A stretch of DNA of 38,116 bases from a virus. Taxonomy: Duplodnaviria; Heunggongvirae; Uroviricota; Caudoviricetes. This document shows, piece by piece, positions 8,293 to 34,957 of this stretch. The notes beneath the pieces are model-generated. The model saw only the letters and a program-made list of their open reading frames with translations, made no database searches and was not told the origin of the DNA. The translations under genes were made by a program, and so were the position numbers. The stretch's first letter is position 1, and each line of letters opens with the position of its first letter. The stretch lies in the IMG/VR virus record IMGVR_UViG_2802429226_000004, positions 1-38,116 of that record, one strand, 5' to 3'.

Positions 8293-8682
8293 TTGATTTC
8301 GTGTCTTATGTGGTTTTTAATTACCTTAGAGGTAAATCATGAGAAAACAGATACAGGCTCTTGGTCGACTCAAAACAGGCCAGATGAACAAAACAGAATC
8401 TGCGTATTGCCAGCACCTTGGCTGCGTAAACGTGCAGGGGAAATCGCCTGGTATCGATTCGAGGGTATCAAGCTGCGGTTAGCTAATAACACGTTCTATA
8501 CGCCAGATTTCGCTGTGATGCTCGCCACCGGCGAGATGGAACTGCACGAAGTGAAAGGTTTCTGGACCGACGACGCCAGGGTGAAAACCAAAGTCGCCGC
8601 AGATCAGTATCCGTTCCGAATCATCGGGGTAACGGTTAAGCCAAAGAAAGCAGGTGGTGGCTGGAACATCGAAGAGTTCTGA
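8293..8682 (+). CDS. DUF1064-like phage protein; probable true start at ATG 8339 in a different frame (apparent frameshift)
   Basis: C-terminal LRKRAGEIAWYRFEGIKLRLANNTFYTPDFAVMLATGEMELHEVKG is DUF1064-like; the GAGG-ATG at 8339 opens MRKQIQALGRLKTGQMNKTESAY in the +1 frame relative to the rest of the gene. Confidence 0.5.
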   Translation: MISCLMWFLITLEVNHEKTDTGSWSTQNRPDEQNRICVLPAPWLRKRAGEIAWYRFEGIKLRLANNTFYTPDFAVMLATGEMELHEVKGFWTDDARVKTKVAADQYPFRIIGVTVKPKKAGGGWNIEEF

Positions 8683-8743
8683 ATCGACGATCTTTTTAGT
8701 TATCAATGTAATCAATAAGTTATGTGGATAAGCGAGGGTAAAG

Positions 8744-9223
8744 ATGGAAAGTAATATCAAAGGGTTAGTTGCCGCCGGGCATGAGATGGCTTCGGAACTG
8801 AAAGCAGAATGTGGTGCCGTTGATATGCGCAGTGTGGCAAAGCTGATCAGCGATTTGGCAACGCAACTGGAAGTGCAACTGGTGCGTGCTAATGCGCTGG
8901 CAGCGGAGAATGCGGGGATGAAGTCTGGCGCAATGGACGAAATCAAGGTTATCAACCGTGGAGGTCAGGCATATTGCGTAAAAGATGGAGTGCAAGTTAA
9001 TCCCATGTATGCAAGAGGGTGGAATGACTATCGCGCAAAGTCTCTGCAATCAGACACCCCAGCCACCGATGCTTTTCTGGCTGAAATTGAACGCAAAGCA
9101 ATCCGAAAGTTCATTAACAGCATTGAACACATCCTGTGTGACAAGCTGTCTCCGTATGACACCGAAGAGATGCTTGAGGCTATGCGTATTTTTCTGGAAG
9201 AACAGGGAGGTGAGCAAAAATGA
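8744..9223 (+). CDS. hypothetical phage protein
   Basis: 159-aa ORF with GAGGG RBS; 4-nt overlap with the next gene. Confidence 0.55.
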   Translation: MESNIKGLVAAGHEMASELKAECGAVDMRSVAKLISDLATQLEVQLVRANALAAENAGMKSGAMDEIKVINRGGQAYCVKDGVQVNPMYARGWNDYRAKSLQSDTPATDAFLAEIERKAIRKFINSIEHILCDKLSPYDTEEMLEAMRIFLEEQGGEQK

Positions 9224-9537
9224 CGATCACAAAACAACGGGTAGAAGAAATCATATTCCGCATTGAAATGTATGGGCATGGTGCAGGGTATACCGCCGAA
9301 GAGGTTTATGACCTGGCTGTACTGGCGCTGAATTTATCAAATATCGCAAACCTGAAGCGATACGAGCTTGATATGGATGGTTGTGACTCGTTCGGTCAGG
9401 ATTGTGGCGCTGACATGACTGAAGATTCTGATGGCGATTATGTCCTGTTTGATGACGTGGTTAAGTTGTTTGAGTTTGATACAACCACTCAGAAGCTAGA
9501 AAGCCCAGCAAAGGAGTCAACCAGTGAGCAAAATTAA
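9220..9537 (+). CDS. hypothetical acidic phage protein
   Basis: 105-aa ORF, ATGA-coupled to the upstream gene, GGGAGGTGA RBS. Confidence 0.5.
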   Translation: MTITKQRVEEIIFRIEMYGHGAGYTAEEVYDLAVLALNLSNIANLKRYELDMDGCDSFGQDCGADMTEDSDGDYVLFDDVVKLFEFDTTTQKLESPAKESTSEQN

Positions 9538-10183
9538 TTACCAGGCACTGCGTGAGGCGGCGGAACGTGCAATTCCAGCAATGGAACGCCTGTTAATGTT
9601 GCCAGCTGATGATGATTTGTTAAGTGAACAGGAACTTAAAGATTATGGTGTGGATATTGATGCGCTCAACGCCTTCAAATTTCTGACCGGACCAGAAACC
9701 GTGCTGACGCTGCTGGATGAACGGGAAAGGAACCAGCAATACATCAAATCCCGCGACCAGGAGAACGAGGATATTGCGCTAACGGTAGGGAAACTGCGTG
9801 TTGAGCTTGAGGAAGCAAAATCAAAACTCAACGAGCAACGCGAGTATTACGAAGGTGTTATCTCGGATGGGAGTAAGCGTATTGCTGAACTGGAAGCACG
9901 GGAAATAAAACCAGCCAAAGGTGAAGTTCTTGTCGTTGTTTCTGGTTTTACTGGTTGCGGAAAAAGCGCCATTGCCGGGGAAATAGAAATCGCGATGAAG
10001 GCTATTGGTGTACCGGTTAAGTGGACTACTGGCGATGCAGAAAAGCGCATGACTGGCGCTGACTGGCTGACAGCAATTGAGATGTACAAACCAACTGTGC
10101 GCATTGTGGAAGTTAATGTGCCGCGCGTCGCTGGCATTCGCATCAAAGGAGACGCAGGAGAACAAAACGATGAAAAACCGTAA
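9524..10183 (+). CDS. Ead/Ea22-like protein
   Basis: 219 aa; coiled-coil middle and C-terminal VVVSGFTGCGKSAIAGEIEIAMKAIGVPVKW resemble Ead/Ea22-like prophage proteins; GTG start with AAGGAG. Confidence 0.6.
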   Translation: MSKINYQALREAAERAIPAMERLLMLPADDDLLSEQELKDYGVDIDALNAFKFLTGPETVLTLLDERERNQQYIKSRDQENEDIALTVGKLRVELEEAKSKLNEQREYYEGVISDGSKRIAELEAREIKPAKGEVLVVVSGFTGCGKSAIAGEIEIAMKAIGVPVKWTTGDAEKRMTGADWLTAIEMYKPTVRIVEVNVPRVAGIRIKGDAGEQNDEKP

Positions 10184-10346
10184 AGCAAAATTACTTCTTT
10201 TATCGCGTTCGACGGGGTACGAGAAGCTACCAATCAGCAATCACAAACGGGCGGTGATCGGCATGTTTGGTAGGGTGGTATTCGCATTTAACTATAAACC
10301 CACCGCGTCGCGGAACAGACGAGAGAAGGGGGACGCAGTGCGATGA
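10169..10346 (+). CDS. small basic protein, first of a tandem pair sharing the N-terminus MKNRKAK
   Basis: 59-aa ORF from ATG 10169 (AGGAG upstream); ATGA-coupled to the next ORF; speculative. Confidence 0.3.
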
Positions 10347-10534
10347 AAAACCGTAAAGCTAAGATGCTTATCTCCCGTGTATACAGACTTTGCTATCCCA
10401 GCCAGTGGTTGAGAGTTAGCAATCGTCGTGTGGTGTTGTTTTCATTTTCTGGAATTGCCAGAGAGGGAGTTCGAGATAAGGGCAGCACGGCGCAAAACCG
10501 CTGGAAAAACCACTTGCGCACTAAAGGAGACTGA
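10343..10534 (+). CDS. small basic protein, second of the tandem pair (MKNRKAKM...)
   Basis: 63-aa ORF; AAGGGGGA upstream; shares a 19-bp identical start region with the preceding ORF. Confidence 0.3.
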   Translation: MKNRKAKMLISRVYRLCYPSQWLRVSNRRVVLFSFSGIAREGVRDKGSTAQNRWKNHLRTKGD

Positions 10535-10535
10535 T

Positions 10536-10745
10536 ATGGCTATTGCCGCAAGTTACACCATGCATCTCTACTGTGATTGTCGCCAGTGTACAAATGGTAA
10601 ATATCAAACGCCAGACTTCGGTGAGTATATCGGTACGTCATGGGCTGGCTGTGCAAAAGAGGCACGTAAGGATGGCTGGCGAATAAGCAAAGACAAAACA
10701 CGTGCTTTTGCGCCAGGGCATAAAGTTTTAAGGATTAACAAATGA
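10536..10745 (+). CDS. small Cys-rich hypothetical protein
   Basis: 69 aa from ATG 10536, preceded by AAGGAG; MAIAASYTMHLYCDCRQCTNGK... Confidence 0.45.
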   Translation: MAIAASYTMHLYCDCRQCTNGKYQTPDFGEYIGTSWAGCAKEARKDGWRISKDKTRAFAPGHKVLRINK

Positions 10746-11482
10746 CCACTATTACCAGAGAAAACGCGGAAATTAAATCATTCATCGCTGGTTTCCTGAG
10801 CGACCCGGCGCACGATAACCAATCTACAGACAGCCTGCTTGCCAATGTGTTTCGTATCGCACAGGCATCGCTGGAAGCAGAACCAGTTGCTTATATTTTC
10901 AAGCATCCGGCCGGGAAATTATTCTGGGCTTTAACGGATGAAAGCAATAAAGAGCAAGCGGACGTTATTCCTGTTTATGCTGCCGCGCCTGCGTCGGTTG
11001 TGCCGGATAATGCATCAGAGCCTCTTGCTTATGCTTACAAAGAGCTTACGCCTGAGATTATGCGCAACCATTTAGCTGTATTCGAGCGATATGGAATAGC
11101 CCCAAACGATAGCTCTACCACAATTCAGGCACTGCGAATCGCGCTGGATGGCAATCATACAGAGCAAAACCTCGATATGGTAGACCATTTCGGTGACGCC
11201 ACCAAAAAGGCCATGCTTCATGGTGCCGAACCTGTAAGCCAAACTTACAAGTTGAACGAGCTATCTGGCAACTCTCCGGTAACTCCGGATGGTTGGATAA
11301 GCTGTAGTGAGCGAATGCCGGATGACGGGCAGTGGTGCGTAGTGAACACAGAATACGGGTATTACGTGCAATGCTGGTCTGAAGGTCAAGGATGGCTTGG
11401 TGATGATATCAGCATCCCTGAATGCGATGTAATCAATTGGATGCCGCTACCAGAACCGCCACAGGAGGTTAACCGTGGCTAA
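10742..11482 (+). CDS. hypothetical protein with C-terminal DUF551-like domain
   Basis: 246 aa; C-terminus WISCSERMPDDGQWCVVNTEYGYYVQCWSEGQGWLGDD...WMPLPEPP resembles DUF551. Confidence 0.6.
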   Translation: MTTITRENAEIKSFIAGFLSDPAHDNQSTDSLLANVFRIAQASLEAEPVAYIFKHPAGKLFWALTDESNKEQADVIPVYAAAPASVVPDNASEPLAYAYKELTPEIMRNHLAVFERYGIAPNDSSTTIQALRIALDGNHTEQNLDMVDHFGDATKKAMLHGAEPVSQTYKLNELSGNSPVTPDGWISCSERMPDDGQWCVVNTEYGYYVQCWSEGQGWLGDDISIPECDVINWMPLPEPPQEVNRG

Positions 11483-11756
11483 CCTGCAACTTGCCGTCAA
11501 AGGTGAATACTTCGATGCCATGATTCGCGGAGAGAAAACGGAAGAGTATCGCTTGTGTAATGACTACTGGAATAAGCGAATTATGTTACGCGAGTATGAC
11601 CGCCTGATTATCACAAAGGGATATCCGAAGCGCGACGACTCCAGTCGCAGAATTGATGTTCCGTATGGAGGATATGAAGTGAAAACAATCACACACCCCC
11701 ACTTCGGTGATAAACCGATAAAGGTTTACGCGATAAAGGTGAATATTGATGGCTAA
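11475..11756 (+). CDS. ASCH/DUF3850-like small protein
   Basis: 93 aa, GTG start after AGGAGG; LAVKGEYFDAMIRGEKTEEYR...RLIITKGYPK pattern resembles the ASCH-like fold. Confidence 0.5.
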   Translation: MANLQLAVKGEYFDAMIRGEKTEEYRLCNDYWNKRIMLREYDRLIITKGYPKRDDSSRRIDVPYGGYEVKTITHPHFGDKPIKVYAIKVNIDG

Positions 11757-12087
11757 ATCAGCAGCAGAGCGCAAAGCCGCTCAGAGAGCCAGACAAGCTG
11801 CATCTGGTGTGCGTAAGCTGGAGATTGTGCTTGATGCTCAGGAAATTGAAATGCTTGAGCGTAACTGTGCCGCGCGTCGCCCCGGGCGTGCGCCTTACGA
11901 ATTTGGTGAGTATATAGCGTTACTTATCCGCCAGGATGATGCACGCGTGCGCGGGCGTATAAAATCGATCAGCAGAAAACGTTGCGGTAAGTGCGGCGAG
12001 AGAGTTCCAGTTAATTCATGCCCGTGTAATGGTGACTCGCAATGCTGGGTGACTAAAGGCTGGCATGAAACGAAATTAATAGTGTGA
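11749..12087 (+). CDS. zinc-finger protein, candidate late-gene regulator
   Basis: 112 aa; C-terminal CGKCGERVPVNSCPCNGDSQC Cys4 cluster; last gene before a strong terminator and the terminase operon. Confidence 0.5.
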   Translation: MAKSAAERKAAQRARQAASGVRKLEIVLDAQEIEMLERNCAARRPGRAPYEFGEYIALLIRQDDARVRGRIKSISRKRCGKCGERVPVNSCPCNGDSQCWVTKGWHETKLIV

Positions 12088-12172: not shown

Positions 12173-12207
12173 ATTACCACAACGGTAACTATTACCACGG
12201 TGGTTAT
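12173..12207. promoter_or_regulatory. two tandem 17-bp inverted repeats abutting the terminase small subunit start
   Basis: ATTACCACAACGGTAAC (12173-12189) and ATTACCACGGTGGTTAT (12191-12207), same family as the OL/OR operators. Confidence 0.45.
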
Positions 12208-12802
12208 GATGCCTGCTGAACCTAAAACCTATAAACGCAAATCAACGCAATTTAAGCCACTAACAGCAATGCAGGAGGCTTATTGCCAGTCATACATCAA
12301 AACGCCTGAAAACCAGACTCAGGCAGCGATTAACGCAGGATTCTCCCCAAATACAGCGGCAGTTAAAGCCAGCGTCATGATGCGCGATGAACGCATTCAA
12401 AAACGGATTGCCGAGTTGATGGAAGAGCGCAACAAACGAATGCGCGTCAGTGCTGATTACGTTCTCATGCGCCTGGTGGAGATCGACCAGATGGACGTGA
12501 TCGATATCCTCAACGACGATGGGAGCCTTAAACCAATCCGTGAGTGGCCGAAAATCTGGCGCACTACGCTTAGTGGCTTTGATCTGTCATCGACCATCAT
12601 GAACATGAACGAGGATTCGATAGAGACAATCCTCAAAAAAATTAAATGGCCTGACAAGGTGAAGAACCTTGAGCTTATTGGTAAGCATGTTGATGTCAAC
12701 GCGTTCAAAGAACGTCTGGATGTTAATGTGAATGTGACAATTGCTGATCGCATAGCAGCAGCTAGGAAGCGACTCAAAGAACGTCAGGATGGTAATCAGT
12801 GA
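12208..12802 (+). CDS. terminase small subunit
   Basis: 198 aa from ATG 12208; directly precedes and overlaps the large subunit gene; the upstream TTG extension was rejected because it runs through the terminator hairpin. Confidence 0.65.
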
Positions 12803-14274
12803 CAGATACAGCGTTATCTCCTGAAGAGCAGTTAATCGAGGATATTGCAGGGTTCACTCACGATCCGCTTGGCTATGCCCTCTATGCGTTCCCTTGGGGG
12901 GAAGAGGGGACTGAACTGGCACATGCCACCGGTCCACGTCAGTGGCAGGCCGATGCGTTCCGAGAGATACGTGATCACCTGCAGAATCCAGAGACGCGCT
13001 ATCAGCCGCTTATGCTGGCACGCGCTTCTGGTCACGGTATTGGTAAATCCGCATTCATCTCAATGCTGATCAACTGGGGCATGTCCACTTGCGAGGATTG
13101 TAAGGTCGTGGTGACCGCCAACACCGACAACCAGCTACGAACGAAGACCTGGCCGGAAATTATCAAGTGGTCGAACCTTGCTATCACGAAAGACTGGTTT
13201 ACCTGTACCGCTACCGCGATGTACAGCAATGATCCTGGGCACGACAAGCGGTGGCGAGCTGACGCAATCCCCTGGTCTGAGCACAACACTGAGGCATTCG
13301 CCGGACTACACAACGAGCGCAAACGCATCATCGTGGTATTCGATGAAGCGTCGAACATTGCGGATCTGGTGTGGGAAGTTGCTGAGGGTGCGCTTACGGA
13401 CGAAGACACTGAGATTATCTGGGTGGCGTTCGGAAACCCTACACGTAATACCGGGCGTTTTCGCGAATGTTTCCGCAAATACAAACACCGCTGGAAAACT
13501 GCGCAGATTGACAGCCGGACGGTGGAAGGTACTAACAAACAGCAGTTGCAGAAATGGGTTGATGACTACGGGGAAGACAGCGACTTCGTTAAAATCCGTG
13601 TGCGCGGCATATTCCCTGATGCATCTGAATTGCAGTTTATCCCTACCGGTCTTACTGATGAGGCAATGAAACGGGTGGTAACCGCTGCGCAGGTGGCACA
13701 TGCTCCGGTGATAATCGGTGTTGACCCGGCATATTCAGGCGTTGATGACGCGGTGATATACCTGCGGCAGGGGCTGCATAGTAAGGTGCTATGGACTGGC
13801 AACAAGACCACCGACGATCTGATTATGGCGAAGCGCATCGCTGACTTTGAAGACCAGTATCAGGCTGACGCGGTATTCATCGACTTCGGTTACGGAACCG
13901 GTTTGAAGTCAATCGGTGATGGCTGGGGACGTACATGGCAACTTGTTCCGTTCGGTGGTGCGTCAACTGACCCTCAGATGCTCAACAAGCGCGGGGAGAT
14001 GTTCAACTCATGCAAGACATGGCTGAGGTTGGGCGGGATGCTGGATGACCAGGAAACAGCGGACGATCTGTCTGCGGCAGAGTACAAAGTTCGCGTGGAC
14101 GGTAAAATCGTTATCGAACCGAAGGAAGATATCAAAGAACGACTTGGGCGTTCACCTGGTAAAGGCGATGCGCTACTGCTGACGTTTGCGTTCCCTGTGT
14201 CAAAGCGTCTGCTAATTCCCGGGCAGCAGAACCAGCAAGGCAAGGCCATTACAGATTACGATCCCTATGCTTAA
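12799..14274 (+). CDS. terminase large subunit
   Basis: 491 aa; Walker-A-like GHGIGKS near the N-terminus, ...IVVFDEASNI... and C-terminal nuclease-like region typical of terminase large subunits; GTG start overlapping the small subunit stop. Confidence 0.9.
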   Translation: MTDTALSPEEQLIEDIAGFTHDPLGYALYAFPWGEEGTELAHATGPRQWQADAFREIRDHLQNPETRYQPLMLARASGHGIGKSAFISMLINWGMSTCEDCKVVVTANTDNQLRTKTWPEIIKWSNLAITKDWFTCTATAMYSNDPGHDKRWRADAIPWSEHNTEAFAGLHNERKRIIVVFDEASNIADLVWEVAEGALTDEDTEIIWVAFGNPTRNTGRFRECFRKYKHRWKTAQIDSRTVEGTNKQQLQKWVDDYGEDSDFVKIRVRGIFPDASELQFIPTGLTDEAMKRVVTAAQVAHAPVIIGVDPAYSGVDDAVIYLRQGLHSKVLWTGNKTTDDLIMAKRIADFEDQYQADAVFIDFGYGTGLKSIGDGWGRTWQLVPFGGASTDPQMLNKRGEMFNSCKTWLRLGGMLDDQETADDLSAAEYKVRVDGKIVIEPKEDIKERLGRSPGKGDALLLTFAFPVSKRLLIPGQQNQQGKAITDYDPYA

Positions 14275-14736: not shown

Positions 14737-14934
14737 AATCTCACCTTAAAAAAATGCCCGGCGAACCGGGCGAACTGGAAGCAATGAGTTATGCCTTCCG
14801 TGGCTGTACTGGTTTACAGCATGAAGTCATCGCAATGGCGTCCTGCTGTAAAAAGGGCGGTGATAGTCCTTCAAGGGAAACCATCACCGCCAAGCCCCTG
14901 GAACTTCTGGCATCACGGTCCTTAGGCGTGATTC

Positions 14935-15011
14935 TGGCGTGGCATGCAGGATTCGAACCTGCGACCAACCGCTTAGAAGGCGGTTGCTCTGTCCAGCTGA
15001 GCTAATGCCAC
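14935..15011 (-). tRNA. tRNA-Arg (anticodon UCU)
   Basis: Hand-folded 77-nt cloverleaf on the minus strand: acceptor GUGGCAU/AUGCCAC, D-arm GCUC/GAGC, anticodon stem ACCGC/GCGGU with loop CUUCUAA, T-arm GCAGG-UUCGAAU-CCUGC, discriminator G and encoded CCA. Confidence 0.85.
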
Positions 15012-15332: not shown

Positions 15333-15411
15333 CTTACCTGAAAGGTAATAATTAGTGCGTTAAATGTCAAGTATCTACGATAAATAAATCACATGTGGTT
15401 AAATTGGTAAT
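15333..15411 (+). promoter_or_regulatory. late-operon control region: operator-like 17-mer plus ACATGTGGTT-N5-GGTAAT element upstream of the portal operon
   Basis: CTTACCTGAAAGGTAAT at 15333-15349; ACATGTGGTT at 15391-15400; GGTAATAAT at 15406-15414. Confidence 0.4.
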
Positions 15412-15438
15412 AATTTAATTGCGTACGGAGTCATTGAT

Positions 15439-15645
15439 ATGTGCATGGGTAGCTCACCATCAGTGCCTGCAACACCAGAAGTTCAGGCAGCACCACAGGA
15501 GCAGGATGCCGCCGTTGTTGATGCCCGCGACGAAGAAACACGTCGCCGTCGCGCTGCTGCTGGTCGTAGTTCTACGCTGCTTACCGGTTCTCAGGGCGAC
15601 ACATCAACCGCTAATACCAGCGGTAAAACGCTGCTTGGTCAGTAA
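15439..15645 (+). CDS. small hypothetical protein (68 aa)
   Basis: GGAG RBS; Ala/Arg-rich low-complexity sequence; shares an identical 11-nt translation-initiation context with the portal gene. Confidence 0.4.
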   Translation: MCMGSSPSVPATPEVQAAPQEQDAAVVDARDEETRRRRAAAGRSSTLLTGSQGDTSTANTSGKTLLGQ

Positions 15646-15659
15646 CCGGAGTCATTGAA

Positions 15660-17339
15660 ATGGCGGAAACAACTAAAGAGCGATTGAACAAACAGTTCGC
15701 ACAACTTGAAAGCGAGCGTCAGTCGTTCGAGCCGCACTGGCGCGAGTTGAGTGATTACATCAACCCGCGTGGTTCCCGCTTTCTGACTTCTGAGGTCAAC
15801 CGTAACGATCGACGCAATACACGCATTATTGATTCGACCGGGACTATGGCGGCGCGCACTCTCGCCAGCGGCATGATGTCAGGCATCACAAGCCCCGCGC
15901 GTCCGTGGTTTCGCCTGGCTACGCCAGATCCTGAAATGATGGATTATGGCCCTGTTAAGTTGTGGCTTGAGGCGGTGCAGAACCGCATGAACGATATGTT
16001 CAATAAGTCGAATCTCTACCAGTCTCTTCCGCAGTTATACGGAAGCCTCGGCACATACAGCACTGGTGCAATGGCGGTGCTGGAGGATGACGAGGACATC
16101 ATTCGCACAATGCCATTCCCGATAGGCAGTTACTACCTGGCTAACTCACCTCGTGGCAGTGTGGACACCTGTTTTCGCAAGTTCTCTATGACTGTTCGTC
16201 AGCTTGTTCAGGAGTTCGGGCTAAATAACGTCAGCAAATCCGTAAAAAGCATGTGGGAAAGCGGCACCTACGAGAAGTGGATTGAAGTGATGCATTCGGT
16301 TTACCCGAACATTGACCGCGATACATCGAAGCTGGATAGCAAGAACAAGCCATTCAAATCGGTTTATTACGAGGTCGGTGGCGATAACGACAAGTTGTTG
16401 CGTGAGTCCGGATTCGATGAGTTTCCAATTATGGCTCCGCGCTGGGAAGTTAACGGCGAAGATGTTTATGGATCATCATGCCCGGGTATGCTGGCGCTTG
16501 GACCTGTTAAGGCATTGCAGCTTCTCCAGAAGCGCAAGTCGCAGTTGATTGATAAAGCCACCAATCCTCCGATGGTTGCTCCGACTTCCCTCAAGAATCA
16601 GCGCGCCTCCCTTCTTCCTGGCGACATCACGTATATCGATCAGATTACTGGTCAGGATGGCTTCAGGCCTGCTTATCTGGTTAACCCCAGTACAGCAGAT
16701 TTGGTGGCAGACATTCAGGACACTCGTCAAATCATTAACAGCGCCTACTTTGTCGATCTGTTCATGATGTTGCAGAACATCAATACCCGCTCGATGCCTG
16801 TTGAAGCGGTGATCGAAATGAAAGAAGAAAAACTTCTGATGTTGGGGCCGGTTCTGGAGCGTCTGAACGACGAATGTCTTAATCCTCTCATTGACCGCGC
16901 TTTCTCGATGATGGTGCGTAAAAACATGCTGCCGCCACCGCCTGACGCGATGGAAGGCATGCCACTGAAGGTCGAATACATTTCCGTCATGGCTCAGGCG
17001 CAGAAGTCTATCGGCCTGTCCAGTCTGGCGTCCACGGTTAACTTCATTGGTCAACTTGCACAAGCGAAACCAGAAGCTCTCGACAAACTCAACGTTGATC
17101 AGGCGATCGATGCATTCGCTGATATGTCTGGAGTGTCTCCAACCGTCATTGTTCCGCAGGAACAGGTTGAGCAGGCTCGCCAGCAACGGGCACAGCAGCA
17201 ACAGCAGCAACAAATGATGGCGATGGGGATGGCGGCGGCACAGGGTGCCAAGACGCTAAGCGAAGCTAAAACTTCGGATCCGAGTGTTTTGTCAGCTATG
17301 GCGAATGCAGTTAGTGGTCAGGGTGGGCAATCACAATGA
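15660..17339 (+). CDS. portal (head-to-tail connector) protein, T7 gp8-like
   Basis: 559 aa; C-terminal Gln/Ala/Met-rich tail ...QQQQQQQMMAMGMAAAQGAKT... resembles the T7 gp8 C-terminus; gene order portal-scaffold-capsid. Confidence 0.8.
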   Translation: MAETTKERLNKQFAQLESERQSFEPHWRELSDYINPRGSRFLTSEVNRNDRRNTRIIDSTGTMAARTLASGMMSGITSPARPWFRLATPDPEMMDYGPVKLWLEAVQNRMNDMFNKSNLYQSLPQLYGSLGTYSTGAMAVLEDDEDIIRTMPFPIGSYYLANSPRGSVDTCFRKFSMTVRQLVQEFGLNNVSKSVKSMWESGTYEKWIEVMHSVYPNIDRDTSKLDSKNKPFKSVYYEVGGDNDKLLRESGFDEFPIMAPRWEVNGEDVYGSSCPGMLALGPVKALQLLQKRKSQLIDKATNPPMVAPTSLKNQRASLLPGDITYIDQITGQDGFRPAYLVNPSTADLVADIQDTRQIINSAYFVDLFMMLQNINTRSMPVEAVIEMKEEKLLMLGPVLERLNDECLNPLIDRAFSMMVRKNMLPPPPDAMEGMPLKVEYISVMAQAQKSIGLSSLASTVNFIGQLAQAKPEALDKLNVDQAIDAFADMSGVSPTVIVPQEQVEQARQQRAQQQQQQQMMAMGMAAAQGAKTLSEAKTSDPSVLSAMANAVSGQGGQSQ

Positions 17340-17632: not shown

Positions 17633-17634
17633 TC

Positions 17635-18330: not shown

Positions 18331-18344
18331 GAGAGGAAATAACA

Positions 18345-19331: not shown

Positions 19332-19382
19332 CGCCTGTTATTAACCTGTGGGTCGTAACAGACCCACTAATGGAGAAAGAAG

Positions 19383-19820: not shown

Positions 19821-19830
19821 GGTGATATCG

Positions 19831-20166: not shown

Positions 20167-20184
20167 GCCTCGCGAATCAGACAA

Positions 20185-20204
20185 GGGGCTTCGGCCCCTT
20201 TATT
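20185..20204 (+). terminator. rho-independent terminator after the capsid gene block
   Basis: GGGGC-TTCG-GCCCC hairpin followed by TTTATT. Confidence 0.7.
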
Positions 20205-20216
20205 GCAGGAGTGTAT

Positions 20217-27138: not shown

Positions 27139-28937
27139 GTTACTTTGGCCTTAATCCAGTAAACCAGAATCAGCAGCTTGACGAAGCAGCATCAAATCCA
27201 GTTGGCTTTAACAGCGATGTTGGTTTTTTCGACAATGCTGTAGGAGCGGCATTGTCTGGTTTGTACTCCGGGCTGGTGGCAAAGCCAGATCAGTTGCTAT
27301 GGGCAGGGATGGATAAAATCGTATCCCCGATTGCTCAGCTTGTTAACGAAAACACCTCGCTCAATGACACTTCAGTTTCATACATTGCTGAGCAGAGAAA
27401 ACTAGCAGAGCAGCAGGTTAAGCGGCTGACGCCTGATGCCGCGACAACCGGAACCGCCGGGCAGGTCCTTTATGGGTTGTTCGATATGGGCGGGCAGGCT
27501 GTTGTCGGTACAACGCTCGGTGGTCCGGTCGGAGGTGCTGCGGCGGTAACTTCTCTACAGGGTTTTTCTGAGTTTGAACGGTTGACAGCACAGGGTGTTG
27601 ATTTCAGGACGGCGCAGGAAGCGGGATTAGTGCAGGGTATTACTGCTGGTGCCGGAACACTGATCCCTATGAGCCTCGGGTTACGTGCTGGTGGTGCGCT
27701 GGCGGAAGGTGTGGCGGCTCAGCTTGCGCGGACGGGTGAAAGTTCAGTGCGACGCGCCGCAGCAACAGCAGTACGTGCAACGCCAGATATTGCCTATGCC
27801 GCAGGTACAAATATTGCGTTCGGTATGGCACAGCGTGGGCTTACTGCAAAAACGCTTCGTGATGGTGGCTATAGCGAAATGGCTAACCAGTATGATGTGT
27901 TGGATCGACAGGCAATTGCTATTGATGCTGTTCTTGGGGTGGCGTTTGGTGGTGTCGGCAGATTTATTAACTCTCGCGGCGAGTCTACAAGCGCACCAAA
28001 TTTTTCACCAGTTGATATTGATGCTGCACTGGCGGCGAATGCCGCTCATCATGCTGAAATTGATATTGCTCCCGGCGTTCCGATCAACGTGCTTTCGCGT
28101 AATTCGCACATTCAGGCTCTGCGAAAAGCCATGTCTGATGTTAGCCAGGGGAGACCTGTAGACGTTGCCAGCATTGTTGAGTCTGCATCTTTCAGTGAAA
28201 TTCCTGGGCGCAAGAGTCTGCTGTCTCAGGCAGTTAATGAGGCTCTGTCATCTGTAGATGATGGAGTAACGGCGCGCGCTATAGAAAATCGGTTGCTTGA
28301 AGAACAGGCCGCGCAGCTTTTGTCGCGTGGCGATAGAAAGGTTTACCAGTCTGAAATCGCTAATAGCCAACGAATTATTGAAAATCTCACTGAACAGCGC
28401 GCACAAATTCTTGCAGAAGAGCCAACCGGTAGCGGTAAGGCTTTATCTCGTGCTAGATCAGATAAACAGGCCAGACTTCGCGATATTGACCAACGAATCC
28501 GGCAGGCACAAGAACGCCTGGAATTTTCTCGTAACGCGTTGGCGCCGCACGAGCCTGGAGGTCAGTTTTTTGAAGCTCGAGCAGAACTGGCACGACGACA
28601 GCAGGCAGAAAGTGAACTTAATGCTCAGGCTGTTTCATTCTATAAAACAGCAGAGGTCAGGACGCCAGAAGAAGTAGCTCCTTTTGAGCCCGGTAAGATA
28701 TTGCAACAGACAGAACAAAAAATGATGGCAGATCCGGCAGGAGATATTGATCTGCGTATAGCTGAAGACTCGCTGCTTGAATCACCTGACATGATAATCA
28801 CCGTGCTGGATGATGATGGTAATCCACAATCGCGCAGTGCGCGTGAAGTACTGGATGAAGCGAACAGGGAAAGTGAGCAGGCAATACAGGATTCCAGCCT
28901 GTTTGATGTTGCTGTGGCGTGTTTCTTGAGAGGTTAA
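27135..28937 (+). CDS. internal virion / ejection protein
   Basis: 600 aa, Ala/Gly-rich with long helical C-half; ATGA overlap with the upstream gene. Confidence 0.6.
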   Translation: MSYFGLNPVNQNQQLDEAASNPVGFNSDVGFFDNAVGAALSGLYSGLVAKPDQLLWAGMDKIVSPIAQLVNENTSLNDTSVSYIAEQRKLAEQQVKRLTPDAATTGTAGQVLYGLFDMGGQAVVGTTLGGPVGGAAAVTSLQGFSEFERLTAQGVDFRTAQEAGLVQGITAGAGTLIPMSLGLRAGGALAEGVAAQLARTGESSVRRAAATAVRATPDIAYAAGTNIAFGMAQRGLTAKTLRDGGYSEMANQYDVLDRQAIAIDAVLGVAFGGVGRFINSRGESTSAPNFSPVDIDAALAANAAHHAEIDIAPGVPINVLSRNSHIQALRKAMSDVSQGRPVDVASIVESASFSEIPGRKSLLSQAVNEALSSVDDGVTARAIENRLLEEQAAQLLSRGDRKVYQSEIANSQRIIENLTEQRAQILAEEPTGSGKALSRARSDKQARLRDIDQRIRQAQERLEFSRNALAPHEPGGQFFEARAELARRQQAESELNAQAVSFYKTAEVRTPEEVAPFEPGKILQQTEQKMMADPAGDIDLRIAEDSLLESPDMIITVLDDDGNPQSRSAREVLDEANRESEQAIQDSSLFDVAVACFLRG

Positions 28938-28942
28938 ATTAA

Positions 28943-31417
28943 ATGAGACAGGAATGTATACAAGCGGTCCAGCAGGCGGCGCAGCGCACGTTAACGGCGC
29001 GAGAAATACAGAACATTGAAGACCGCATTTATCGAAATATGCGCTCCATTGCTCGTGATGACCCGATGTCGTGGCGACAACTTTCCGAATCAGAGCGGCT
29101 GTATCGTGCAGCACAATTGGCATCTGAAGAATTACAGCGAGAAGCGGCATTAAAGAAACGTCGTGTGGCCCTCACTATAGCCGCACGTCAGAGATTGGAT
29201 AAATTTATCAATAGCTATCAAGGGGCTGATGGGAAACTTGGCGCTCTTAACCGTACTATTGCTTTTAATGCAGACGGTAAATCGAATTTCCTCTCTGTTG
29301 AATCCAGAACAAAAGCCACCCGTGATTATGCATTGAGTCAATTGCAGGAGGCATTCGAAGCAGTTGATCCTCGCTTTTTTGGTCTGTTTGAAGATGAAGC
29401 GGGCGTACGTGACCTGGTATATGAAATGCGGGGGCAAAATACTGGCAATGCTAAAGCAAGAAAAGGTGCTAAGGCGTGGAGAGAAGTGACAGAGCTACTG
29501 CGCCGCCGGTTTAATGATGCTGGTGGGGACATTGGCTATCTCGAAAACTGGGGGATCCCTCAACATCATTCTATGGAAAAGGTTGGGGCGGTATCAAAAG
29601 ATAAATGGGTTAGCGATGTTATAGGTAAGCTGGATCGCAAATATTATACCCGAGCCGATGGACAACTGATGAACGATGCCGAGTTGTCTGCATTTCTTGG
29701 AGAGGCTTATAACACGATCGCTACTGGTGGGCTGAATAAGCTTACTGATACCGGAATGCGAATTTCCGGCGCACGTGCTAACCGTGGTAATGCATCACGA
29801 CAGATACATTTCAAAGATGCAGATTCCTATCTGCAATATCAGCAACTTTATGGCGATCGCTCTCTATGGGAAATCATGGTCGGTCACCTGGAAGGTATCA
29901 GTAAAGATATTGCACTGGTGGAAACATATGGTCCAAACCCCGATCATGTTTTCCGCTCTCTTCTTGATCAGGTGAAGGCAGAAACGGCAACAGCTAACCC
30001 GAGTAAAACCGGTAAAGTCGAGCGGCTGGCGAACAACACAGAGAATCTGTACAACTTTATTTCCGGAAAGACACAGCCTGTAGCGAATCCGCACATCGCG
30101 CGATGGTCTGACAATATCCGCAACTGGCTGGTTGCCAGCAGACTCGGATCCGCGTTGCTGTCATCGTTCTCTGATCTTGGAACCATGTATCTGTCTGCGA
30201 AGGTTACCAACCTTCCAATGAACCAGTTATTCCGCAACCAGCTTGAAGCTATGGACCCAACGAACCGTACAGAACTTGCGCGGGCGCGCCGCGCTGGTCT
30301 GGCGATGGAATCTCTACTTGGCAGCGTTAACCGCTGGGCGATGGATAATATGGGGCCGTCTGTGTCTCGTTGGGCTGCAACGGCGGTAATGCGTGCCAGT
30401 GGGCTTACAGCATGGTCAGATGCGCACAAGCGCGCCTATGGCGTAACCATGATGGGAAGCCTGGGAGAAGTAGTGTCACGGACACCAGACCTTCGTCGCC
30501 TCGATGACTCTGATTTTCGTATCCTGAAAAGCAAAGGGATTACTGACACAGACTGGAGCGTATGGAAGTTGGCGCAACAGGAGGACTGGGGGAACGGTAA
30601 TAATACGATGCTGACACCGGAAAGCATTATGCGTATCCCTGATTCAGCAGTTAAACATCTTGGTGAGCCTGAACGCGTGAAATTTGAGGCAATGCGTAAA
30701 CTGCTCGGTGCCGTAACTGAAGAAGTTGATATGGCTGTTATTACACCGGGAGCACGTGAGCAACTGATAACCGGTTCTGGTATTCAGCGTGGAACATGGA
30801 AAGGTGAATTAACGAGAAGTGTTTTCCTGTTTAAATCGTTCCCTATCTCGGTTGTTATGCGTCACTGGTCACGCGCTATGGGTATGCCGTCTGCTGGTGG
30901 GCGTGCGGCATATATTGCGACGTTTATTGCCAGTACGACCATTCTTGGCGCTTTGTCGCAACAACTTAACGACCTTGCGTCTGGTCGTAATCCTCGAGAG
31001 ATGACAGGAGAAGATGCCGCAAAATTCTGGCTTGGTGCTCTACTGAAAGGTGGTGGTCTTGGCCTTTACGGTGACTTTTTATTGTCAGATCACACTAGGT
31101 ACGGAAGCGGCGCGCTGGCGTCGATGCTTGGCCCGGTAGCTGGTCTAGTTGATGACGTAGTGAAGATTGCTCAGGGCATACCGTTAAATGCTGTGGAAGG
31201 GAAGAGTGAGCAGACTGGTGGTGATCTGGTGAAGCTGGGGAAAGGTTTGATGCCTGGTGCGAATCTCTGGTACTTGAAGGCGGCTCTCGATCACATGATC
31301 TTTAACCAGATGCAGGAGTATTTTTCACCAGGCTATTTGCGTAAAATGGAGCAACGTTCGAAGAAAGAGTTTAACCAGACATACTGGTGGCGACCTCAGG
31401 ATGTCACTCCGCAATAA
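28943..31417 (+). CDS. large internal virion / ejection protein (gp16 position)
   Basis: 824-aa ORF, last of the large ejection-protein series before the tailspike region. Confidence 0.6.
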   Translation: MRQECIQAVQQAAQRTLTAREIQNIEDRIYRNMRSIARDDPMSWRQLSESERLYRAAQLASEELQREAALKKRRVALTIAARQRLDKFINSYQGADGKLGALNRTIAFNADGKSNFLSVESRTKATRDYALSQLQEAFEAVDPRFFGLFEDEAGVRDLVYEMRGQNTGNAKARKGAKAWREVTELLRRRFNDAGGDIGYLENWGIPQHHSMEKVGAVSKDKWVSDVIGKLDRKYYTRADGQLMNDAELSAFLGEAYNTIATGGLNKLTDTGMRISGARANRGNASRQIHFKDADSYLQYQQLYGDRSLWEIMVGHLEGISKDIALVETYGPNPDHVFRSLLDQVKAETATANPSKTGKVERLANNTENLYNFISGKTQPVANPHIARWSDNIRNWLVASRLGSALLSSFSDLGTMYLSAKVTNLPMNQLFRNQLEAMDPTNRTELARARRAGLAMESLLGSVNRWAMDNMGPSVSRWAATAVMRASGLTAWSDAHKRAYGVTMMGSLGEVVSRTPDLRRLDDSDFRILKSKGITDTDWSVWKLAQQEDWGNGNNTMLTPESIMRIPDSAVKHLGEPERVKFEAMRKLLGAVTEEVDMAVITPGAREQLITGSGIQRGTWKGELTRSVFLFKSFPISVVMRHWSRAMGMPSAGGRAAYIATFIASTTILGALSQQLNDLASGRNPREMTGEDAAKFWLGALLKGGGLGLYGDFLLSDHTRYGSGALASMLGPVAGLVDDVVKIAQGIPLNAVEGKSEQTGGDLVKLGKGLMPGANLWYLKAALDHMIFNQMQEYFSPGYLRKMEQRSKKEFNQTYWWRPQDVTPQ

Positions 31418-31917: not shown

Positions 31918-31944
31918 AGGCCGCTTTCGCGGCCTTTTCTTTAT
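31918..31944 (+). terminator. rho-independent terminator after the membrane protein genes
   Basis: AGGCCGC-TTTC-GCGGCCT hairpin followed by TTTCTTTAT. Confidence 0.65.
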
Positions 31945-32213
31945 GTGGTTTGTTTTCGTAATTGTTCGGCACAATAGTCGAGATGTGTTTGCAGATCCTG
32001 CATAGACATCTGTGAGCTGGTGACGTAGTTAATCAGTGCAGTCAGTTCGGCAAGTGGGCCATCGACATTAAATCCATCCTTATCGAGATCCCGGAGTAAT
32101 TTCATCAAGTGCGATCCCTCCACCAGTGACCTGACGCCTCCCGGCGTGTGAATCCTTTCGGTAAATCCGTCTTCCAGTGGATAGTGATACTGCTGCATCT
32201 TAATCTTCTCCAT
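31941..32213 (-). CDS. hypothetical protein (90 aa), reverse-strand moron
   Basis: Minus-strand ORF with its own upstream intergenic region; no family recognised. Confidence 0.5.
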   Translation of the reverse strand: MEKIKMQQYHYPLEDGFTERIHTPGGVRSLVEGSHLMKLLRDLDKDGFNVDGPLAELTALINYVTSSQMSMQDLQTHLDYCAEQLRKQTT

Positions 32214-32274
32214 GCAATAACTGTATATTTATACAGTAGCAAATAATTTGTTTGCTATCCAGCACGTTTTGCAA

Positions 32275-32341
32275 ATTACCTGAAAGGTAATATCTATTCA
32301 TATTCACAGTCTTTCTATCCATATGTGGTTTTTCAGGTAAT
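32275..32341 (+). promoter_or_regulatory. tailspike control region: operator-like 17-mer plus ATATGTGGTT-N5-GGTAAT element
   Basis: ATTACCTGAAAGGTAAT at 32275-32291; ATATGTGGTT at 32321-32330; GGTAAT at 32336-32341. Confidence 0.4.
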
Positions 32342-32394
32342 AGAATAACCAGATATGCGGCGCAACGGGTGCTGCGACTATCTGGAGATTTAAC

Positions 32395-34740
32395 ATGACG
32401 GTCTCAACCGAAGTTGACCACAACGAATACACCGGTAACGGCGTTACGACATCGTTTCCGTATACTTTTCGAATTTTCAGAAAATCAGACCTGGTTGTTC
32501 AGGTGTCTGACCTGAACGGGAACGTAACAGAATTGGTTCTGGATACCGGTTATACGGTAACTGGGGCGGGCACTTATAGTGGCGGTTCAGTGGTTCTGCC
32601 GTCTCCGCTTGCTGCTGGCTGGCGAATTACGATAGATCGTGTGCTTGATGTAGTGCAGGAGACAGATCTTCGCAATCAGGGAAAATTTTTCCCCGAAGTG
32701 CATGAAGATGCTTTGGACTACCTGACGATGCTGATCCAGCAATGTTTTGGGTGGTTCAGACGTGCATTGATGAAACCATCTTTGCTTGCAAAATATTACG
32801 ATGCAAAGCAAAACAGAATTTCTAACCTTGCAGATCCATCACTTGAGCAGGACGCTGTAAATAATCGCTCAATGCGTAATTATGTCGATGCTGCAATCGC
32901 CGGGGTTGTTGGTGGTTTTGGTTGGTTTATTCAGTATGGTTCTGGGGCAGTATACAGAACGTTCCAGGATAAAATGCGAGATAATTTTAGTGTTAAAGAT
33001 TTTGGGGCGAAAGGGGATGGGGTATATTCAGACTCTGATGCCATTAATGCCGCAGCATTAGCTGCTTTTAATAATGGTGGCGGGGGAATATTTTACCCTC
33101 CAGGTGTTTATTTAATAGATTCTCCTATCATTCTTTATACAGGCGTTCATCATAAAGGCTCTGGAAAGAGAGCAACATTTCTGTATGTTAAAAAAGGTAG
33201 TAATACAGATGTATTTAAAACACATGGCTTTGGCGTTGTGGAAAATCTGTCTGATGCGCCATATGGATTTAGCATAAAAGATATGACCATTGATGGTAAT
33301 TATCTTGACTTGCAAAGAGATACAAACTCATGGAGAACTTGCGACACTGTTAACAATGACTATGGAACTGCCATTAAAATATTCGGCAGCATGTACCACA
33401 TTGATGTTGAGATTAATAATGTTGCAGAACATGCTCTCTATTCAGAGGGGTATGGATCATTTCATGATAATCAGGAACACGCCTCTGAAGTGAGGATAAC
33501 GGGAAGAATTTCAGGGAGAGAGGGGGTTGTGTTCAGGGGGCCAGGTGATATTAACCTGGATTATATTGTTTTTGGCCTGTGTGGACTTCCTCCTTACAGC
33601 GCAAGATTAACAGCAACAAGCCAACAAAGCCTTCTTTATCCCGGAGAACCATGTCATGGAATTGTTCTTGATAATCAGTCTCCTTATACAGGACATGTCG
33701 ATATAAATTACATCCATGTATATGCCGTGTATTATGGCTATGGATTTAAGACGCTGGGTGTTAACCGATTCAATGCGAGGCACGTGTGTGTTGATAATAG
33801 TTTAGGTGGTTACTGGTTTACCAACGGGGCACATGGTGTTGTTGCCATCGCAGAAGCCAGGGCATGCGGAAGAATGCCAGATAACTACACTGGCGATTCA
33901 ATATCTCCTCTCCGCGACATGCTTCTGGATAACGGTACAATCTGGACACTTAACATCAATATAAAAGCACAAAGATATTCACCTTCAATTGATGATGATG
34001 GGTATCAGATAGCTATATCAGGCAACAACAATGTAGTTACAATAAACCAAATAGGTCAGTTACAGAGTGATAATACCCCTATTAAAGCCTCGTTTCTTTC
34101 TGTTACTGGTGACAATAACAATGTTACTTTTACATCCAAGAGGATAAAAGGAAATTTATGTTACTTATCTGGTGGCGGTAATAACATAAGAGGTACGTGT
34201 GATAATTTGTTCTCAGGTGCTGCTTTTATTCGCGACGCAACAAATTCAACAACAATTTGTTTTGCGAACAGTGTAGATATAACTGCGAAGGGGCTTTCTT
34301 CTGATTGTACTGGATTTAATAGTATTGGTACATGTGCATCAGAGAATATAAGGTTAATGATTTCTGGTGCTGTTGGATATACGAAGTTTACTGGCGATCG
34401 TATGGCTGCAATAAATCGAACTTGTGTTTGGATGGTAATGGCAACAATAGGAAATTCAATTAATGGTAAATCGACAGAGGATTATCTTGAGTGGGCTATG
34501 CCTACACCAACCGATGGTGATTTTCATGAGGTAGATATAGAACATAACTTCCTTTATGCTCCAACTTTAAATCAAATTTCATGGGCTTTCAGACAACCCG
34601 GTACTGAAGTTGTTGGTGCAACTATTGATTATATAAGACTCATTGGTGTTCCAACAGATACAACATTTAAAATCAGATATAAGTGGTCTGGTGCAGCCGC
34701 TTCTGGAAGCGCACCTATAGTAACGTTTCATATAAAATAA
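32395..34740 (+). CDS. tailspike protein with pectate-lyase-like beta-helix (probable polysaccharide depolymerase)
   Basis: 781 aa; N-terminal MTVSTEVDHNEYTGNGVTTSFPYTFRIF attachment domain; FSVKDFGAKGDGVYSDSDAINAAAL and repeated beta-helix-like segments; C-terminal two-thirds strongly AT-rich. Confidence 0.8.
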   Translation: MTVSTEVDHNEYTGNGVTTSFPYTFRIFRKSDLVVQVSDLNGNVTELVLDTGYTVTGAGTYSGGSVVLPSPLAAGWRITIDRVLDVVQETDLRNQGKFFPEVHEDALDYLTMLIQQCFGWFRRALMKPSLLAKYYDAKQNRISNLADPSLEQDAVNNRSMRNYVDAAIAGVVGGFGWFIQYGSGAVYRTFQDKMRDNFSVKDFGAKGDGVYSDSDAINAAALAAFNNGGGGIFYPPGVYLIDSPIILYTGVHHKGSGKRATFLYVKKGSNTDVFKTHGFGVVENLSDAPYGFSIKDMTIDGNYLDLQRDTNSWRTCDTVNNDYGTAIKIFGSMYHIDVEINNVAEHALYSEGYGSFHDNQEHASEVRITGRISGREGVVFRGPGDINLDYIVFGLCGLPPYSARLTATSQQSLLYPGEPCHGIVLDNQSPYTGHVDINYIHVYAVYYGYGFKTLGVNRFNARHVCVDNSLGGYWFTNGAHGVVAIAEARACGRMPDNYTGDSISPLRDMLLDNGTIWTLNINIKAQRYSPSIDDDGYQIAISGNNNVVTINQIGQLQSDNTPIKASFLSVTGDNNNVTFTSKRIKGNLCYLSGGGNNIRGTCDNLFSGAAFIRDATNSTTICFANSVDITAKGLSSDCTGFNSIGTCASENIRLMISGAVGYTKFTGDRMAAINRTCVWMVMATIGNSINGKSTEDYLEWAMPTPTDGDFHEVDIEHNFLYAPTLNQISWAFRQPGTEVVGATIDYIRLIGVPTDTTFKIRYKWSGAAASGSAPIVTFHIK

Positions 34741-34776
34741 ACAATTTATTAATTAGTTTTTAATTATATAGAAGGC

Positions 34777-34815
34777 ATCAGTCCCAATAAAATGGGGCTG
34801 ATTACTTTTCATTGT
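34777..34815 (+). terminator. putative rho-independent terminator after the tailspike gene
   Basis: CAGTCCC-AATAAAAT-GGGGCTG imperfect hairpin followed by a T-rich tract. Confidence 0.4.
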
Positions 34816-34957
34816 TTTCATAAAAAGGTAAAAAAATTAAATATTATTATTTGTTTGAACCTGGTTATAGAAGTAATTATTTTAAGGTAACATTAAACCT
34901 TATGTGGTTTGTTGTGTATGATAGTCTGTAAGTGAAGAGGTTCGATATGTACAGAAA

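Follow-up and report, generated by a model that had tools for sequence, protein, structure and literature searches.

Phages of the epsilon15, phiV10 and SPC32H kind are model systems: for the conversion of serotype, for repressor-antirepressor control of a non-canonical sort, and for reporter and biocontrol phages directed at E. coli O157 and Salmonella. Here we analyze a short repeated element in one such phage, the 38,116-nucleotide (nt) Caudoviricetes record IMGVR_UViG_2802429226_000004 (the window, by which we mean this whole stretch of DNA). Judged by sequence comparison, the window is an epsilon15/phiV10-like prophage whose relatives are podoviruses of the genus Uetakevirus; Escherichia phages HEMP4, ZX5, TL-2011b and phiV10 are ∼98% identical to it. 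The repressor of SPC32H, Rep, is described as a tetramer that binds palindromic DNA and in which DNA-binding pairs form across dimers (PMC9638917, in an account citing Kim et al. 2016). The window encodes a protein (Rep, 5332-5916) homologous over its full length to SPC32H Rep (PDB 5D50, E = 3.5e-42) and assigned to Pfam HTH_3. In the epsilon15 RefSeq record, ATTACC-N5-GGTAAT palindromes are marked 'protein_bind: repressor', and the window contains 8 copies of the TTACC-N5-GGTAA palindrome (15-17 base pairs, bp), compared with 0.02 expected. Next to these operators lies a second, 14-bp element with a consensus of its own, which we tentatively interpret as an auxiliary, low-affinity operator acting with tetrameric Rep (probability about 0.4).

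A preliminary description of the window had listed six plus-strand copies of a 10-mer, TTATGTGGTT, most of them just upstream of gene starts. The exact copies at 8306-8315, 31941-31950 and 34900-34909 are indeed present, all on the plus strand; 0.07 copies are expected on both strands together, and none of 100 shuffled sequences reached three. The one-mismatch copies at 8720 (TTATGTGGAT) and 32321 (ATATGTGGTT) are likewise present, but the copy at 15391 (ACATGTGGTT), also given as a one-mismatch copy, carries two mismatches; the 8-mer ATGTGGTT that it shares with others occurs five times, always on the plus strand, where 1.5 copies are expected. The list was incomplete: a search allowing up to one mismatch returns 11 matches versus 2.2 expected, the additional ones starting at 1813, 5222, 16673, 19037 and 33802 on the plus strand and at 23219 on the minus strand. 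Those at 1813, 16673, 19037 and 33802 sit within genes, far from operators, and are plainly coding-sequence coincidences. Five copies do precede an ATG by 24 to 74 nt, as stated (start-to-start distances of 32, 24, 48, 74 and 58 nt), and the motif is both non-random and tied to the starts of transcription units.

The 10-mer proves to be the right two-thirds of a 14-bp pseudo-palindrome of the general form AACC-n-TAT-n-TGGTT, with the core ACC-N6-GGT. The right half, TGGTT, is nearly invariant, its GGTT being replaced only by GGAT in some copies at the nin position and never by GGTA, and the left half reads AACC, ATCC, AATC or worse. Perfect 14-bp palindromes occur in the lysis module of phiV10 and Tyrion (AACCATATATGGTT) and of one IMG/VR phage, L023 (AACCACATGTGGTT). 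The plus-strand bias is real: TAT.TGGTT occurs 7 times on the plus strand of the window, compared with 0.65 expected, and 42 times on the plus strand versus 11 on the minus strand over 8 complete genomes oriented alike. It is not simply the direction of transcription, because one copy lies antisense within the minus-strand PL promoter. That copy and a degenerate one after the cro terminator were recognized by position and extend the earlier list. The copies in the window are as follows.

5218-5231, plus strand: ATGCTTATTTGGTT, within the spacer of the minus-strand PL promoter
6377-6390, plus strand: degenerate copy AACCAAATCTGGTT, after the cro terminator, 19.5 bp from a weak operator, GCACCTTAAAGGTAA (6357-6371)
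8302-8315, plus strand: TGTCTTATGTGGTT, at spacer positions 4-17 of the putative nin promoter
8720-8729, plus strand: doubtful copy TTATGTGGAT, upstream of an Eae-like gene, lacking a left half and any operator nearby
15387-15400, plus strand: AATCACATGTGGTT, in the portal (head-operon) control region
31941-31950, plus strand: orphan exact 10-mer, directly after the terminator hairpin 31918-31935, overlapping the stop and last codons of the minus-strand gene 31941-32213
32317-32330, plus strand: ATCCATATGTGGTT, in the tailspike control region, followed by GGTAAT at 32336-32341 and the best -10 candidate, TAGAAT, at 32341-32346
34896-34909, plus strand: AACCTTATGTGGTT, in the lysis-cassette control region, containing the exact 10-mer at 34900-34909

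At the nin position, relatives read GTATATGGAT, GTTTGTGGTT or TAATGTGGAT; at the PL position, Enterobacter phage BUCT554 has the exact TTATGTGGTT and Tyrion has ATCCATATATGGTT. At locus position 35389, 19.5 bp from an operator, Tyrion also reads ATCCATATATGGTT, which from the annotation of that phage we take to be the counterpart of the post-cro copy. Two of the listed copies stand apart. The one at 8720 (TTATGTGGATAA) holds the reverse complement of a perfect DnaA box, TTATCCACA (8723-8731, minus strand), which is the only perfect box in the window (∼0.3 expected) and lies just downstream of the replication and DUF1064 genes; this copy is probably unrelated to the element family. The one at 31941 is coding: read in reverse complement (..ACC ACA TAA), it ends the minus-strand gene with its stop codon. 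Its counterpart in phiV10, ZX5 and Tyrion has the sequence AACCTTAT(C/G)TGGTT, at a distance of 41.5 bp from an antirepressor-region operator. These three phages carry an antirepressor (Bro-N/Ant) block that is absent from the window, where the left half of the copy and the operator are both gone. The copies at 31941 and 34900 bracket the minus-strand gene and the tailspike gene (32395-34740), as described before, and they do share the 14-mer TTATGTGGTTTGTT; such sharing is not exceptional, since the window contains 29 pairs of exact 14-mer repeats, compared with 2.3 in shuffled sequences.

The GGTAAT or GGTAAA noted earlier as following the motif is also real, and consists of half-sites of the Rep operator palindrome. 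The complete operators, together with two sites of mixed type, are located as follows.

5198-5212: PL operator, TTACCGTTGAGGTAA
5260-5274: second PL operator, TTACCCGTAAGGTAA, 62 bp from the first
5972-5986, 5989-6003 and 6020-6034: three operators between the repressor and cro-like genes
8259-8273 and 8321-8335: nin operator pair, 62 bp apart, flanking the copy at 8306
12174-12188: terS operator, upstream of the small terminase gene
12192-12206: terS hybrid site TTACCACGGTGGTTA, overlapping the ribosome-binding site, its left half of operator type and its right half (GGTT) of element type
15334-15348: portal operator
15396-15410: portal hybrid site TGGTTAAATTGGTAA, exactly 62 bp downstream of the portal operator
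32276-32290: tailspike operator, shared by the divergent tailspike (plus-strand) and 31941-32213 (minus-strand) genes

Element and operator differ both in spacing (ACC-N6-GGT versus ACC-N5-GGT) and in half-sites (AACC/GGTT versus TTACC/GGTAA), so that the element has neither the TTACC/GGTAA inverted repeat nor the 5-bp central spacer of a Rep operator. No copy is found at the operator triplet 5972-6034. The hybrid sites combine the two types: TTACC-N5-GGTTA upstream of terS, shared by the window and Tyrion, in place of the GGTAA of other phages; TAACC-N5-GGTAA in a Pantoea prophage; and TGGTT-N5-GGTAA, found at exactly 62 bp from the operator of the portal module and at 50 bp from that of the tailspike module. 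These mixed sequences show that AACC/GGTT and TACC/GGTA halves can replace one another at operator positions, and they suggest that AACC/GGTT halves are read by the same protein as TACC/GGTA halves, or by one co-operating closely with it. The PL and nin regions share one architecture, comprising an operator, 19 nt, a -35 hexamer, 17 nt, and a -10 hexamer abutting the second operator, and the 62-bp spacing of both pairs recurs in every relative examined, apart from PL of Klebsiella phage BUCT711 (63 bp).

We measured the centre-to-centre distance from each element to the Rep operator. It is 19.5 bp for the PL copy (operator centre 5205), for the post-cro copy and, on one side, for the nin copy (operator centre 8328); 40.5 bp for the tailspike module in 21 distinct sequence contexts; 41.5 bp in three different antirepressor-region modules of relatives; 42.5 bp from the nin copy to the operator centred at 8266 and from the PL copy to the upstream operator centred at 5267; 43.5 bp for the lysis module of phiV10 and Tyrion; and 52.5 bp for the portal module of all aligned relatives. 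Every one of these spacings falls within 1.5 bp of a multiple of 10.5, corresponding to about 2, 4 or 5 helical turns. Within a module the spacing is constant (21 contexts for tailspike, 8 for portal, 9 for nin and 5 for lysis), except for a 1-bp shift in the Scandinavium nin copy. In contrast, the gap between the element and the downstream -10 block has acquired insertions or deletions in L084 and SPN1S (tailspike) and in L086 (lysis), and the gaps to the -10 candidates measure 0, 4, 7, 9 and 10 nt, with no constant distance. A fixed operator spacing combined with a shifting -10 gap indicates that the element is coupled more tightly to the operator than to polymerase contacts.

The element is found at orthologous positions in relatives from E. 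coli, Salmonella, Enterobacter, Klebsiella, Scandinavium, Kluyvera, Pseudocitrobacter, Erwinia, Citrobacter and Pantoea. At the portal, the block TAT(G/A)TGGTTAAATTGGTAATAAT is nearly invariant in 13 aligned phages and prophages from nine bacterial genera, and it is kept in two further Uetakeviruses. Among 39 distinct equal-length variants of the tailspike module, the element changes at a single position (G/A) while both flanks vary freely. Every relative found uses the same operator together with the same element, including Klebsiella BUCT711, with a portal identity as low as 65%, and the Pantoea prophage. Loci L095-L101, in which homologues of a ribbon-helix-helix (RHH) protein considered below are 41-45% identical, have neither operator nor element, and in Cobetia phage Carin1 Rep, the RHH protein, the operator and the element are all absent together. 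The element is a standard component of the repressor-controlled modules of epsilon15/phiV10-like phages, and in this prophage few control regions are without it.

In promoter models, the element overlaps putative core promoters, and the promoters themselves we infer from such models. The top match of the promoter scan is PL, with a -35 hexamer TTGACA at 5240-5235, 17 nt, and a -10 hexamer AATTAT at 5217-5212 on the minus strand; the nin model comprises TTGATT at 8293-8298, a 17-nt spacer and TTTAAT at 8316-8321. In both, the element fills spacer positions 4-17. The predicted lysis promoter of phiV10 (TTAACC-17-TATAAT) is near consensus, with the element forming the first ten spacer bases, and in the tailspike model (TCCATA-17-TAGAAT) the element overlaps the -35 hexamer, as it does at the portal. 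In the lysis module of the window, the -10 candidate TATGAT occupies 34917-34922 and a Rep-type half-site, GGTAAC, 34886-34891. Transcription is modelled to start at ∼32352-32354 (tailspike), ∼34928-34930 (lysis), ∼15422-15424 (portal), ∼8327-8329 (nin) and ∼5205 on the minus strand (PL).

In the mechanism that we propose, a Rep tetramer, which has two DNA-binding pairs, would anchor on the strong palindrome; in the late modules this palindrome lies 60-80 bp upstream (at about -70 to -83), too distant to block RNA polymerase itself. The second Rep pair, or a partner protein, would then contact the element over the -35/spacer region, and the head, tailspike, lysis, nin and PL promoters would thereby be shut in the lysogen. 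Both the binding of Rep to the element and the looping are steps that we infer. Several observations weigh against this mechanism. The element has a strict consensus of its own (GGTT and never GGTA, a 6-bp centre, a conserved TAT-n-T), which is unlike a merely degenerate Rep operator and would suit a different protein. Its asymmetric centre is always oriented along the plus strand, even at PL and in the antirepressor region, and a symmetric dimer does not account for this. PL and nin already possess two full operators, so that an auxiliary site there seems redundant, and the lysis module of the window has no full upstream operator, yet keeps the element. Moreover, a loop of ∼40 bp would require sharp bending of the DNA, and the promoters and start positions on which the mechanism draws are themselves predictions.

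The main rival explanation, doubtful but deserving of consideration, is that the element is the site of a separate dimeric phage regulator, for which the best candidate is the 112-amino-acid RHH and Cys-rich protein encoded at 11749-12087. By binding in the spacers of PL and of its own nin promoter, such a regulator would act as a repressor of early transcription; occupancy of the weak -35 regions at the portal, tailspike and lysis promoters would let it modulate or activate late transcription, in an early-to-late switch of the phi29 p4 or T4 MotA type. A structural model of this protein (predicted local distance difference test score, pLDDT, 90.8) matches RHH DNA-binding domains; no sequence match was found in Pfam, NCBIfam or PDB, and the homologue search returned 'hypothetical protein' names only. 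A pseudo-palindrome of ∼10-14 bp is the usual footprint of one RHH dimer. The size of the element fits this footprint, its consensus is distinct from that of the operator, and its presence in the promoter spacer of the protein's own operon fits RHH autoregulation. The protein is conserved in every Uetakevirus examined, where it is annotated 'transcriptional regulator', the -35 hexamers of the portal and tailspike promoters are poor, and no Q-like antiterminator was noticed among the annotations. However, the position of the element is fixed relative to the Rep operator and not to the -10 hexamer, which implies coupling with Rep and not with RNA polymerase; the near-consensus lysis promoter of phiV10 should need no activator; and the copy at 6377-6390 has no evident promoter. 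Operator, element and both proteins are present together throughout the relatives, and this joint conservation fits the auxiliary operator and the RHH site alike. A bolder form of the proposal, which we regard as unlikely, is that the element is the site of an uncharacterised family of RHH and Cys-rich regulators constituting the missing early-to-late switch of epsilon15-like podoviruses. If so, the regulator would shut PL and its own nin promoter by binding in their spacers and would activate or license transcription from the head, tailspike and lysis promoters beside the Rep operators, and the polar, plus-strand-only centre (TAT-n-T) would give the element directionality.

The remaining explanations dispense with a dedicated regulator. 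It is improbable that RNA polymerase itself reads the motif as an intrinsic promoter element (in place of a -35 hexamer, within the spacer or as an extended -10-like element) spread from one ancestral promoter cassette. Every well-placed copy does overlap one of the best sigma-70 models, the lysis (TATGAT/TATAAT) and tailspike (TAGAAT) modules have -10-like hexamers after the motif, and a conserved hairpin in the tailspike leader begins 3-7 nt past TAGAAT, as expected of a 5'-terminal stem-loop. But the register relative to the -10 hexamer differs among the best models (the motif lying at -22 to -13 at nin, -29 to -20 at lysis, -32 to -23 at tailspike and portal), copies in the antirepressor region lie at about -41 or -58 of local promoters, the PL copy is inverted relative to transcription, and a consensus sigma-70 scan of the window found no enrichment of canonical promoters and called none at the motif. 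To our knowledge, the motif resembles no E. coli sigma consensus. The preliminary description had already doubted that the motif is a plain sigma-70 promoter, and rightly so: it is not itself a sigma-70 hexamer, being offset from the best -10 candidates by 0, 7 and 10 nt, and this variability fits a regulator site. That the similarity has no function of its own, and reflects chance together with AT-rich intergenic sequence hitch-hiking beside real operators, is decidedly improbable. The independent modules are few (∼9), some one-mismatch matches are the coding coincidences identified above, and the copies at 8720 and 31941 look orphaned; against this, the element is conserved across genera while adjacent bases vary, its spacing is free of insertions and deletions, all distances are in helical phase, and enrichment over shuffled sequences is about ten-fold. 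Very improbable, too, is the earlier suggestion that the copies are mosaic junctions at the borders of cassettes open to exchange, for instance the tailspike block. In 43 related loci homology begins exactly at 31941, 10 alignments end at 31943, a few begin at 34885-34899, and one begins at 32316 (L069, in which different sequence occupies the upstream side to within 5 nt of the element). Position 31941, however, is merely the end of a gene whose neighbouring antirepressor block is present or absent; most tailspike junctions fall elsewhere, at 32930-33020 within the tailspike gene and at 34969-34995 in the gene that follows; and the regions holding the copies at 8306, 15391 and 5222 are collinear throughout the relatives. 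Such junctions are better explained by conserved functional modules that start at the element. We give least credence to the other earlier suggestion, a role at the RNA level in 5' leaders, where the motif might for instance be cut by RNase III, signal antitermination or serve as a translational operator. In its favor, the epsilon15 record marks an RNase III site at 24755-24817 beginning inside the lysis-module copy, and the epsilon15 lysis leader folds into a 22-bp hairpin (24759-24815, -35.8 kcal/mol, z = -5.9). This hairpin is not kept in the window (z = -1.9), it shows uncompensated mismatches in SPN1S (by eye), and it would take in the -10 hexamer, so that it would be absent from transcripts of the predicted promoter. 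Folds in the window give z = -1.7 to -1.9, those around the other copies being unremarkable, and Rfam has no match at the copies; the best promoter models place the motif upstream of the start site, and the fixed spacing to a DNA operator, together with the antisense PL copy, favors a role at the DNA level.

Other recognition sites were also compared with the motif. Only the copy at 8720 matches the DnaA box (9/9), the others missing even the relaxed form TT(A/T)TNCACA. The integrase arm sites annotated in epsilon15 read GTGACGGTAT and are unrelated, and none of the sigma-54, CRP, IHF, PhoP or ArcA consensus sequences fits (compared by eye). As a plain sigma-70 promoter the motif gave no scan match, and a position-weight search placed it in inconsistent registers.

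The surrounding genes, assigned from the annotation of HEMP4-, ZX5-, TL-2011b- and phiV10-type relatives, are arranged as follows.

1-1251: integrase
after the integrase: leftward early operon
2089-2388, minus strand: homologue of PerC-family transcriptional activators, in the leftward early operon (Pfam PF06069, E = 6e-07; PHROG 868)
5332-5916, minus strand: repressor gene, Rep
6071-6301: cro-like gene, with the cro terminator at 6323-6342
up to 8221: replication genes
8338-12087: 'nin-like' block
11749-12087, plus strand: gene for the 112-amino-acid protein, homologue of epsilon15 gp49 and phiV10 p55, the last gene before the terminase genes
∼12209-14274: terminase genes
14935-15011, minus strand: tRNA-Arg, anticodon tct (Rfam 71.7 bits; ARAGORN)
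15439-31417: head and tail genes
31941-32213, minus strand: minus-strand gene
32395-34740: tailspike gene
34958-36767: lysis cassette

A number of these regions have features of their own. The PerC-family homologue at 2089-2388 might matter for cross-talk with virulence genes in pathogenic E. coli. Within the first replication gene, an 18-nt direct repeat, CAGCGTTACAAAAGGAGT, occurs at 6801-6818 and 7010-7027, 209 bp apart, and its copies are overlapped by small inverted repeats (GTAACGCTG...CAGCGTTAC) at 6791-6809 and 7000-7018; these repeats could be origin iterons. In the nin-like block, a 19-nt direct repeat, CGATGAAAAACCGTAAAGC, stands at two adjacent gene starts (10168-10186 and 10341-10359), which suggests that the 5' ends of genes were duplicated there. 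The tRNA-Arg gene separates the large terminase gene from the portal control region and overlaps the mechanical open reading frame 14754-15005. Between the portal operator and the element, a conserved GTCAA(T) at 15365-15370, found at the same positions in 13 relatives, reads TTGAC(A) on the minus strand and is followed by a conserved CTACG(C/T)TAAATAA; the GTCAA(T) could be a host-factor site, or else the -35 hexamer of a leftward promoter serving the minus-strand genes and the tRNA.

The minus-strand gene 31941-32213, whose end adjoins the late-operon terminator 31918-31935 as in SPN1S, has a near-consensus LexA (SOS) box, CTGTATATTTATACAG, at 32221-32236, just upstream of its start; CTGT-N8-ACAG occurs 3 times in the window, compared with 0.65 expected. 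A homologue of this gene heads the antirepressor block of relatives. The LexA-type box suggests that the gene is under SOS control, although the antirepressor gene itself is absent here. The tailspike-leader hairpin occupies 32349-32385 (z = -3.4), starting 3-7 nt after TAGAAT, and the differing sequences at this position in Tyrion, SPN1S and epsilon15 still look hairpin-capable by eye; it is possibly a stabilizing 5'-terminal stem-loop. The 22-bp lysis-leader hairpin of epsilon15 buries the ribosome-binding site.

The operators of this system are already known, and it is the element that appears undescribed. It carries no annotation in the detailed epsilon15 record, which marks the palindromic operators only, and we found no description of it in the searchable full-text literature, a search that did not extend to the primary epsilon15 genome and SPC32H papers. 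The ZX5 paper reports predicted promoters only. In kind the element would be familiar, one more operator or regulator site within the immunity circuit of a phage, and for that reason the advance would be incremental, not conceptual. If our interpretation is correct, a second site phased to the operators and lying over every promoter other than PR would help explain how a repressor bound 60-80 bp upstream can silence late promoters, and possibly also how early and late transcription are separated in phages in which no annotated late regulator was noticed. For engineering, the element offers targets of ∼14 bp per promoter.

How, then, does the element compare with described sites? Compared with the DnaA box, the copies other than that at 8720 read TGTGGTT, a mismatch at the conserved T4, and the window has no cluster of boxes. 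Like the T4 MotA box (near -30), the lambda CII repeats (around -35) and the phi29 p4 sites, the element overlaps weak late -35 regions, and the late genes are directly preceded by the gene for a conserved small putative DNA-binding protein; unlike these sites, it has no fixed -10 register, occurs also in strong early promoters and away from promoters, and shows no sequence similarity to them. The stoperators of mycobacteriophage L5 and its kind are likewise short intergenic sites in one orientation that lie beyond the true operator, with a link to the immunity repressor that in our case is a proposal. The element differs from them in having only ∼7-8 copies, all at the heads of transcription units beside a palindromic operator, and in being largely palindromic, and its PL copy is antisense to local transcription, contrary to what defines a stoperator. 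With the operators of Rep (SPC32H Rep, PDB 5D50/5D4Z) the element shares its genomes, its regulatory regions, its ACC...GGT core and a palindromic form, whereas its centre is conserved and asymmetric (TAT-n-T) and operator centres are free. The remaining comparison is with repression loops, as formed at lac O2/O3, gal OE/OI, lambda OL-OR and the flanking sites of coliphage 186 CI. The element differs from its main operator in spacing and consensus, and its distances are very short (20-52 bp), so that the geometry may be side-by-side or sharply bent. As in those loops, a second site, here putatively the weaker one, is helically phased to a strong operator; one site would lie over the promoter, and the repressor, judged by its SPC32H homologue, would be an oligomer with more than one DNA-binding unit.

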